NCBI RefSeq assembly: GCF_003334385.1
Contig: NZ_QOWN01000172.1
Direction: 5' to 3' (one strand)
From: Escherichia coli
GTDB lineage: Bacteria; Pseudomonadota; Gammaproteobacteria; Enterobacterales; Enterobacteriaceae
Length of the DNA: 515 nucleotides
The first letter of the stretch is position 1. Every line of letters starts with the position of its first letter. The notes beneath the pieces are model-generated. The model was given only the letters and a program-made list of their open reading frames with translations, searched no databases and was not told the origin of the DNA. Positions 1 to 515 of the stretch are shown here, piece after piece. Both the position numbers and the translations under genes were made by a program.

Positions 1-515
1 GTTGCAATGCTGTTTATGATGCTGTCAGTGCATGGGGTAGAAAGCTGGGCATCTCCAGCAATTTTCATGACCTCAACATCTGCATATCGAATACCGAGGT
101 GTATCAGACCGGCTATGCCTGACTTAAGCCGAGCATTTTCCATAAATAGAACTTTTGCCCGCTGTTTTTCTGCTTCAAGCTCAACGCGCAGCTTCCCTAC
201 CGTTAGCGCAATATCCTCGTTCTCCTGATCGCGGCTTTTGATGTATTGCAGGTTTCTTTCCCGTTCATCCAGCAGTGCCAGCACGGTAGCCGGGTTAGCC
301 TCTGCTATGAATTCAGCGTTTGCATAAGCCTGAGCATCTGTTTCAACCAGGCAGTTAACGTGACATTCTGCAATTACGCCACCGGGTTCTCCTTTCCATT
401 TTTGACAAACAAAAACTCCTGTTAAATTGCCGTGTTGGTTAACAGATGTATGCCCTACGATGTAGCTTCCTTTAGTTGCTTTCTCTGCCTTTTCACGCAG
501 TACCTGATAGTTAAT
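1..515 (-). CDS. Ead/Ea22-like family prophage protein, internal fragment (start lies beyond position 515, stop beyond position 1)
   Basis: Reverse-complement frame with codons at 515-513, 512-510, ... down to 5-3 gives 171 codons and no stop; chance expectation for a random frame of this length is about (61/64)^171, roughly 3e-4. Translation: INYQVLREKAEKATKGSYIVGHTSVNQHGNLTGVFVCQKWKGEPGGVIAECHVNCLVETDAQAYANAEFIAEANPATVLALLDERERNLQYIKSRDQENEDIALTVGKLRVELEAEKQRAKVLFMENARLKSGIAGLIHLGIRYADVEVMKIAGDAQLSTPCTDSIINSIAT. The motifs LREKAEKATKG and NAEFIAEANPATVLALLDE followed by a charged helical stretch match my recollection of Ead/Ea22-like proteins of E. coli lambdoid prophages; no search was run. 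The only in-frame ATGs (+ 141-143 and 66-68) lie in the last third and lack a well-spaced Shine-Dalgarno, so the true start is most likely outside the window. Confidence that this is a real CDS is about 0.85; confidence in the family name is about 0.55. Confidence 0.75.
   Translation of the reverse strand, partial: MNYQVLREKAEKATKGSYIVGHTSVNQHGNLTGVFVCQKWKGEPGGVIAECHVNCLVETDAQAYANAEFIAEANPATVLALLDERERNLQYIKSRDQENEDIALTVGKLRVELEAEKQRAKVLFMENARLKSGIAGLIHLGIRYADVEVMKIAGDAQLSTPCTDSIINSIA

Follow-up and report, generated by a model that had tools for sequence, protein, structure and literature searches.

The ead/Ea22-like gene and its blocks

The window, i.e., the whole stretch of 515 nucleotides of E. 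coli DNA analysed here, lies inside an ead/Ea22-like gene of a prophage early left operon (positions 1-515, minus strand). The minus strand is an open frame over all 515 bases, or 171 codons, and the DNA is 100% identical to that of WP_021524342.1, a protein of 182 amino acids whose CDS lies at L001:5992-6540 of the prophage locus L001. Matches of 100% DNA identity were also found in several E. coli chromosomes, e.g., that of strain 2012EL-2448. The ead/Ea22-like name was given to the CDS by RefSeq, the family being PF13935 (IPR025153). A Pfam scan of the full protein returned a single match, Ead_Ea22 (PF13935, E=5.1e-35), which covers residues 2-151 and model positions 1-139 of 139. On the open frame, the CDS identity and the PF13935 match, the window ORF is a real gene for an ead/Ea22-like prophage protein.

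The gene exceeds the window by 9 nt at the high end and by 25 nt at the low end (a window position equals 6516 minus the L001 coordinate), so that residues 4-175 of 182 are covered. Three N-terminal residues are missing, and about eight C-terminal residues fall outside: T175, whose codon is split, then GIRIKGE and the stop. The C-terminus of WP_021524342.1 reads ...GIRIKGE*, i.e., the terminal (K/R)-G-E tripeptide is present outside the window. The segment singled out by the earlier note as a possible swapped variable domain, its residues 132-171, was read correctly, as the minus-strand translation of positions 122 to 3 gives the same SGIAGLIHLGIRYADVEVMKIAGDAQLSTPCTDSIINSIA. In the numbering of the full protein, which adds 3 to that of the earlier note, these are residues 135-174. 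The segment does continue beyond the window as was stated there, but by a mere eight residues, seven of which belong to a family-wide tail.

The prophage of L001 adjoins mlrA and has the order repressor, yfdP/Q/R, small ORFs, ead/Ea22, small ORFs, xis and int. Phage Lys8385Vzw and lambda likewise have this gene placed between the immunity/recombination genes and xis-int. The gene directly downstream (L001:6542-7057, MALTHHELCQIAYKFLKRNGF...) is annotated as frameshifted in L001 and is intact, with 171 aa, in locus L005. It has no Pfam match, and its PHROG matches are to unannotated families alone, so the context gives no functional clue. A D...E-A-K pattern in this gene resembles PD-(D/E)xK nucleases by eye, which is an impression from the sequence.

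Ea22 proteins have been described as three-domain, tetrameric and pro-lysogenic (PMC10834534, PMC7093339), with a short N-terminal region, a long central coiled coil and a distinct C-terminal region (PMC10834534). The blocks of the present gene follow in the order N-terminal leader, variable insert, coiled-coil block ending in ...LTVGKLRVELE, variable cassette and a nearly universal (A/T)GIRIKGE end of 7-9 residues. The coiled-coil block, VLALLDERERNLQYIKSRDQENEDIALTVGKLRVELE followed by AEK, lies at positions 165-284 of the minus strand. It is common to lambda Ea22, as seen in both DNA and protein matches, and borders the cassette on the 5' side as its presumed flank for recombination. AF2 modelled residues 80-130 of the full-length protein with a pLDDT of 87-95.

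The variable N-terminal insert comprises residues 19-65 (GSYIVGHTSVNQHGNLTGVFVCQKWKGEPGGVIAECHVNCLVETDAQ, GSYIVGHTS...ETDAQ; positions 330-470, minus strand) and was delimited from the MAFFT alignment, the Cyrano and P1-like ORFs and representative proteins. It is swapped for GEWSLEYGENRFDGDD... in P0028, P0040 and Cyrano, and lambda-like and P1-like forms lack it, so that the mosaic structure extends to both ends of the protein. The earlier note had connected exchangeable C-terminal domains with specificity; since the N-terminal blocks are shuffled too, specificity cannot be assigned to the C-terminal rather than the N-terminal end. One protein, P0010, was seen to carry a 30-residue internal tandem duplication within this insert.

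Cassette exchange and the 3' junction

Cassettes were typed among 80 viral-contig loci that share the N-terminus, of which 76 with a complete ORF were grouped. Type A, the cassette of the window, accounts for 20 loci, type B for 18, C for 11, E for 7 and D for 5; types F, G and H have three loci each, I and J one each, and four loci are unclassified. Thus, about ten unrelated cassettes stand behind the same N-terminus. Type A consists of residues 118-175 (AEKQRAKVLFMENARLKSGIAGLIHLGIRYADVEVMKIAGDAQLSTPCTDSIINSIAT; positions 1-173, minus strand), as delimited by the cassette catalogue and by the blastn and BLASTP end points, and it is the shortest cassette, with 65 residues after LRVELE.

Several of the other variants have features of their own. 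The type-E cassette (L016, L044, L045, L049-L051 and L055; also P0070 and P0074) carries a Walker-A-like motif, VVVSGFTGCGKSAIAGE, which suggests that a small P-loop domain has been joined to the stalk of Ea22. DUF551 was found in P0083 and in type I. P0052 and P0153 contain two copies of the central LLDE...LRVELE block and are apparently fusions of tandem ea22-like genes.

The boundaries of the cassette are sharp in the DNA. In every non-A class, blastn homology to L001 stops at 6341-6353, which corresponds to window positions 175-163 and to residues 117-121. Homology with the non-A loci restarts at L001 6517-6519, just outside the window, at a junction of about 27 nt that encodes GIRIKGE. 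Within about 10 nt, the identity is lost, from 93-99% to none, and it is regained at the 3' junction. In the six type-C loci L021, L023, L027, L031, L034 and L037, an unrelated insert stands between flanks that match L001 with 97.7-98.8% identity (5700-6351) and with 100% identity (6519-6800). Near-identical flanks around an unrelated insert are the signature of clean cassette replacement.

The protein comparisons gave a similar result. The MAFFT alignment has a common N-terminal part as far as ...LTVGKLRVELE (E117), after which unrelated tails of 65 to more than 260 residues follow and converge on AAGIRIKGE. For 120 homologs, the ends of the BLASTP alignments fall into clusters at residues 122, 126 and 139 and at full length. 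A second, deeper boundary lies at about position 140 (residue ~129), which is the edge of a minimal core common to non-Ea22 proteins.

Taken together, the flagged segment is very probably the main part of a C-terminal cassette that can be exchanged in proteins of the Ea22 family. The suspicion that a mosaic prophage protein carries an exchangeable module at its C-terminus was borne out at the level of both protein and DNA, with sharp breaks on both sides and about ten alternative cassettes. Its breakpoint has to be moved: positions 120-125 had been proposed, while the actual break at positions 163-175 (residues 117-121) lies 40-50 nt further into the coiled coil. The tail is not a standard, conserved part of the family that stays free of shuffling, as N-terminal DNA matches were found by megablast in 2,068 of 5,426 complete E. 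coli genomes and just 58 of these match the whole stretch (at least 80% of the 515 nt). The expectation that this part would be the one most likely to be unusual did not hold, because the cassette DNA alone (the last 189 nt of the gene) is common, being present in 479 of the 5,426 E. coli genomes.

Two stretches of DNA conserved in all variants, the coiled-coil block and the ~27-nt junction, bracket the cassette. Phage recombinases are known to produce mosaics with traces of flanking homology (PMC3945230, PMC2327257), and recombination at these two flanks, either homologous or homeologous, may account for the cassette swaps. With about 27 nt, the 3' flank offers little length for efficient homologous exchange, except where both partners have the downstream gene in common, as some pairs do.

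The junction, GC(T/A)GGCATTCGCATCAAAGGAGAG TGA (T/G)ATG, makes up the 3' end of ea22 over ~27 nt and lies at L001:6514-6546, directly below position 1 of the window. Its DNA is near-identical, third codon positions included, across about ten unrelated cassettes, and at least eight different downstream ORFs were found behind it. It includes the Shine-Dalgarno sequence and the start codon of the next gene, as the K-G-E codons AAA GGA GAG put GGAG 6 nt before the ATG that follows. Shine-Dalgarno-forming codons are also found at the ends of other genes of the same operon (...IRKGGNQ*, ...KKEGNAA* and ...RQEVNQ*). The significance of the terminal '+GE' motif of Ea22 is unknown according to Dydecka et al. 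(PMC7093339). The simplest reading of the sequence is that '+GE' represents a ribosome-binding site embedded in a conserved junction, which would also serve as the 3' homology arm for exchange. If true, a small open question in the Ea22 literature would be removed.

A portable core and its possible role

Within the cassette, a minimal portable core was delimited at residues 129-173 (ENARLKSGIAGLIHLGIRYADVEVMKIAGDAQLSTPCTDSIINSI; positions 6-140, minus strand) from its other N-termini, its pN/pS, PHROG 11761 and the AF2 models; the core includes the segment that was flagged at first. No fewer than 12 unrelated N-termini precede these ~45 residues, and the genomes concerned are of lambdoid, P22-like, P1-like, phage-plasmid and Nonanavirus type. 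Carriers with non-Ea22 N-termini are PJ16_093 of a Nonanavirus, P0129, P0133, P0135 and P0136 and the Citrobacter protein P0138. In P0146, P0149, P0152 and P0157-P0162, the core follows zinc-ribbon-like and other N-termini, and in the phage-plasmid Cyrano and in a P1-like form of 148 aa, it follows alternative Ea22 N-termini. The DNA that the Nonanavirus PJ16 gene has in common with L001 is confined to 6375-6510. In all cases, the core is preceded by a helical ...ENxRLK segment.

The core is under strong constraint. Across eight contexts, 24 columns are invariant. Eight distinct DNA versions gave one, three and 13 variable sites at the first, second and third codon positions, respectively, and a pN/pS of 0.13. 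This pattern and this ratio indicate that the annotated frame is under purifying selection. When 1.84 billion representatives were searched exhaustively with a profile, 29 proteins were found, with a sharp cut-off and no tail of weaker, distant matches. This indicates that the core is narrow in distribution and highly conserved, yet joined to many partner domains. More divergent versions of the core do exist, e.g., ...GLVHLGIRHGDIEVMSIAGDAQLSTPCTDSIIEKIAAGIGVKGE, and the presence of STPTTD in P0164 and P0165 means that the cysteine is not essential. With the 66-aa cassette as query, a word-indexed search gave 24 proteins, mostly short or partial, and under-sampled the full-length carriers; the picture of the carriers is taken from the exhaustive search of representatives and from the DNA searches. 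The ~45-residue core is a portable, selectively constrained unit that is reused behind unrelated N-terminal domains.

The carriers are not confined to integrated prophages. In E. coli, 215 of the 516 places where the cassette was found, nearly half, are on plasmids, which indicates that the module moves between integrated lambdoid prophages and extrachromosomal phage-plasmids. The cassette-bearing plasmids measure ~90-113 kb, the size of phage-plasmids, and are P1-like or SSU5/Cyrano-like (e.g., hits H63, H68 and H73-H89). Among phage records, 260 have the N-terminal part and 28 the cassette; lambdoid/Stx, P22-like, P1-like, ~108-kb phage-plasmid and Nonanavirus/Sashavirus genomes are represented. 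Most of the phage matches end at gene base 346-351.

One operon, L005:1666-3775, encodes a type-F Ea22 followed by a small ORF and, two genes downstream of the Ea22, a distinct P0152-like protein that carries the core of the window and the GIRIKGE tail. The small ORF has a ClpX-zinc-finger-like CxxC...CxxC motif (CSFCNKSQ...CDECVDVC).

Searches for known domains gave little. The earlier note had found no recognisable motif in the segment, and this stands for the cassette scanned alone (residues 117-182), which has no Pfam match even at E<=10, no match in NCBIfam and none in the PDB; in the scan of the full protein, the Ead_Ea22 envelope formally extends to residue 151. The full protein has 0 matches at E<=1 when compared with the PDB by phmmer, as opposed to lambda Ea22, which matches 8DSX with E=1.2e-51. 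The core profile found nothing among PDB sequences other than a chance coiled-coil match (E ~1). A Foldseek comparison of the AF2 cassette model, which is small and of uncertain quality, with the PDB gave generic helical hairpins alone, all with E>=2. The PHROG 11761 profile covers residues 83-182 (E=2.7e-30) and still matches the last 48 residues alone (E=1.1e-10).

AF2 modelled the isolated cassette as a long helix (cassette residues 2-31) that continues the stalk, followed by short helices at 34-45 and 47-59. The best of the five models has a pLDDT of 80.6 and is the only one to reach 80, with the other four at 55-69. For the full-length protein, the mean pLDDT is 64.9; a helix was predicted for residues 78-155, the confident part of which ends near residue 140, and the scores of residues 156-182 are below 50. 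The Ea22 literature warns that AlphaFold mispredicts the C-terminal domains of Ea22 (PMC10834534). The core is tentatively predicted to be helical and to cap the coiled coil. The earlier note had also held that its segment does not resemble the coiled coil; this is doubtful for the first ~15 residues, where the predicted stalk helix runs on through SGIAGLIHLGIRY.

Based on these models, the core may cap the distal end of an oligomeric coiled-coil stalk as a small helical element, where it might act as a partner-binding or assembly end, both with low confidence. [quoted passage not shown] This role was shown for the lambda and Stx-phage variants alone, which carry other C-terminal domains (PMC10834534, PMC7093339). 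As a whole, this protein-level mechanism is rather doubtful.

A related possibility is that the cassette is mainly a structural terminus, i.e., an oligomerisation or capping element for which any cap would suffice, rather than a determinant of specificity. Type A is the shortest of the cassettes and is predicted to be all-helical and continuous with the stalk, and its helix GIAGLIHLG, rich in small residues, could favour tight helix packing. Such a terminus would also agree with the finding that the C-terminal domains of lambda and Stx phages are dimeric while the full protein is tetrameric regardless of their sequence (PMC10834534). However, 24 invariant columns in eight contexts and a pN/pS of 0.13 are very strong conservation, and it extends to surface-type polar residues (DAQLSTPCTD), beyond the need of a generic cap. 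The other cassettes, moreover, are large and distinct (DUF551, Walker-A-like), which suggests that the position is a functional one. A purely structural terminus seems rather unlikely, though it is a serious alternative to a role in specificity and the strongest of the alternatives.

It is considerably less probable that the cassettes are defence or anti-defence effectors whose diversity results from an arms race. The accessory early region is rich in variable small genes, and the many alternative cassettes turn over rapidly, as an arms race would have it. Against this, PADLOC-DB models gave 0 families at E<=0.01 for the protein, a module-sharing relative and the downstream neighbour. The sequence within the cassette is nearly invariant instead of diversifying, and the published phenotypes concern lysis-lysogeny control (PMC10834534, PMC7093339).

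The view that the tail is the fast-diverging end of a single, vertically inherited domain, without any exchange of modules, is very improbable. It could appeal to the Ead_Ea22 envelope, which reaches residue 151, and to the BLASTP alignments with other variants, which extend to residues 122-139. Gradual divergence does not produce a loss of identity within ~10 nt that is restored at the 3' junction, nor near-identical flanks around unrelated inserts; the same core behind unrelated N-termini in different phage types and the absence of a Pfam match for the cassette alone also speak against it.

The least credible proposal is that the conservation serves the opposite strand or a structured RNA instead of the Ea22 tail: a 73-aa ORF with an ATG start, found by mechanical ORF listing, overlaps the cassette on the plus strand (positions 7-228) with a pN/pS of 0.20, and a terminator-like hairpin lies at positions 44-59, but no Rfam match was found at E<=1 and promoter and terminator matches are at the level of shuffled sequence (1 found vs. 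means of 0.5-0.6). As a gene, the antisense ORF was rejected, since no record examined annotates it and its ratio is higher than the 0.13 of the sense frame. The low value of 0.20 is to be expected, as the third codon positions of the two frames coincide, and the ORF is probably a shadow ORF of the coding frame. A longer antisense version of 116 aa was seen in the P1-like locus L086.

The reading that goes furthest beyond cassette exchange is that the core (ENxRLKSGIAGLxHLGIRxxDxxVMxIAGDAQLSTPCTDSII) might be an undescribed, autonomous and portable module of enterobacterial temperate phages, a helical head on coiled-coil stalks that is common to Ea22 and several unrelated early proteins and engages one specific host or phage target; independently of this, '+GE' would be the Shine-Dalgarno sequence of the next gene within the ~27-nt recombination junction. 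This is put forward tentatively, as a conjecture with a reasonable chance of being right that still falls somewhat short of probable.

Place among known Ea22 proteins

It is already published that ea22 genes are mosaic and that their C-terminal domains differ between lambda and the Stx-phage variants V1, V2 (DUF551) and V3 (PMC10834534, PMC7093339, PMC8614690). Lambda Ea22 (NP_040612.1) resembles the window protein in that it belongs to PF13935, is encoded in the early left operon upstream of xis/int and also has 182 aa, the last of which is a coincidence. In BLASTP, the aligned parts are confined to residues 78-122, with 80% protein identity, and to the last seven residues, GIRIKGE, which are identical. 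The lambda ea22 DNA matches L001 at 6232-6351 alone (92.5%). In contrast to the window protein, lambda Ea22 is without the insert of residues 19-65, and its alpha/beta C-terminal domain (residues 102-182, PDB 8DSX) has no sequence counterpart in the window protein, whose tail is shorter than that of lambda and predicted to be all-helical.

The Stx-phage variants V1, V2 and V3 (Goddard et al. 2024, PMC10834534) share more with the gene of the window: their N-terminal segment, coiled-coil block and extra insert match it at ~94-96% DNA identity, and the mosaic principle and the +GE end are common to both. The matches with V1/V2 (F422) and V3 (1717, 2851, F349, WGPS4 and WGPS6) are restricted to gene bases 1-346/351. 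None of the V1, V2 and V3 prototype phage records (F422; 1717, 2851 and the P27 group) is among the 28 phage records that encode the window cassette according to tblastn, and DUF551 (PF04448) was not found in the window protein by the Pfam scan, which gave PF13935 alone. By sequence comparison, the tail of the window is a further type of C-terminal domain, which is neither that of lambda nor that of Stx V1, V2 or V3 and is absent from the papers that describe them.

The module had already been clustered in a phage protein family, PHROG 11761. This family is unannotated, however, and lumps the portable core together with the coiled-coil block. Another parallel is the modular mosaicism of lambdoid phages, in which relaxed homologous recombination at conserved boundaries puts unrelated DNA in the place of a block and leaves traces of homology at both edges (PMC3945230, PMC2327257). 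The difference is that one boundary is intragenic here and lies within the coiled coil, so that chimeric proteins arise instead of whole-gene swaps. As the intragenic mosaicism of lambdoid accessory genes is well established, the general picture is unchanged.

Ea22 is one of the few proteins of the exo-xis region known to push lambda and Shiga-toxin phages toward lysogeny, and its variable C-terminal domain is the suspected functional end. The lambda/V1/V2/V3 scheme is extended by a further type, which is common in E. coli and is reused by non-Ea22 proteins. The natural near-isogenic pairs that differ in the cassette alone, e.g., L012/L014 of type A vs. L027/L031 of type C, are ready material for work on the function of the C-terminal domain. 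If it is true that the core engages one specific target, the choice of cassette would re-target the early-operon scaffold.
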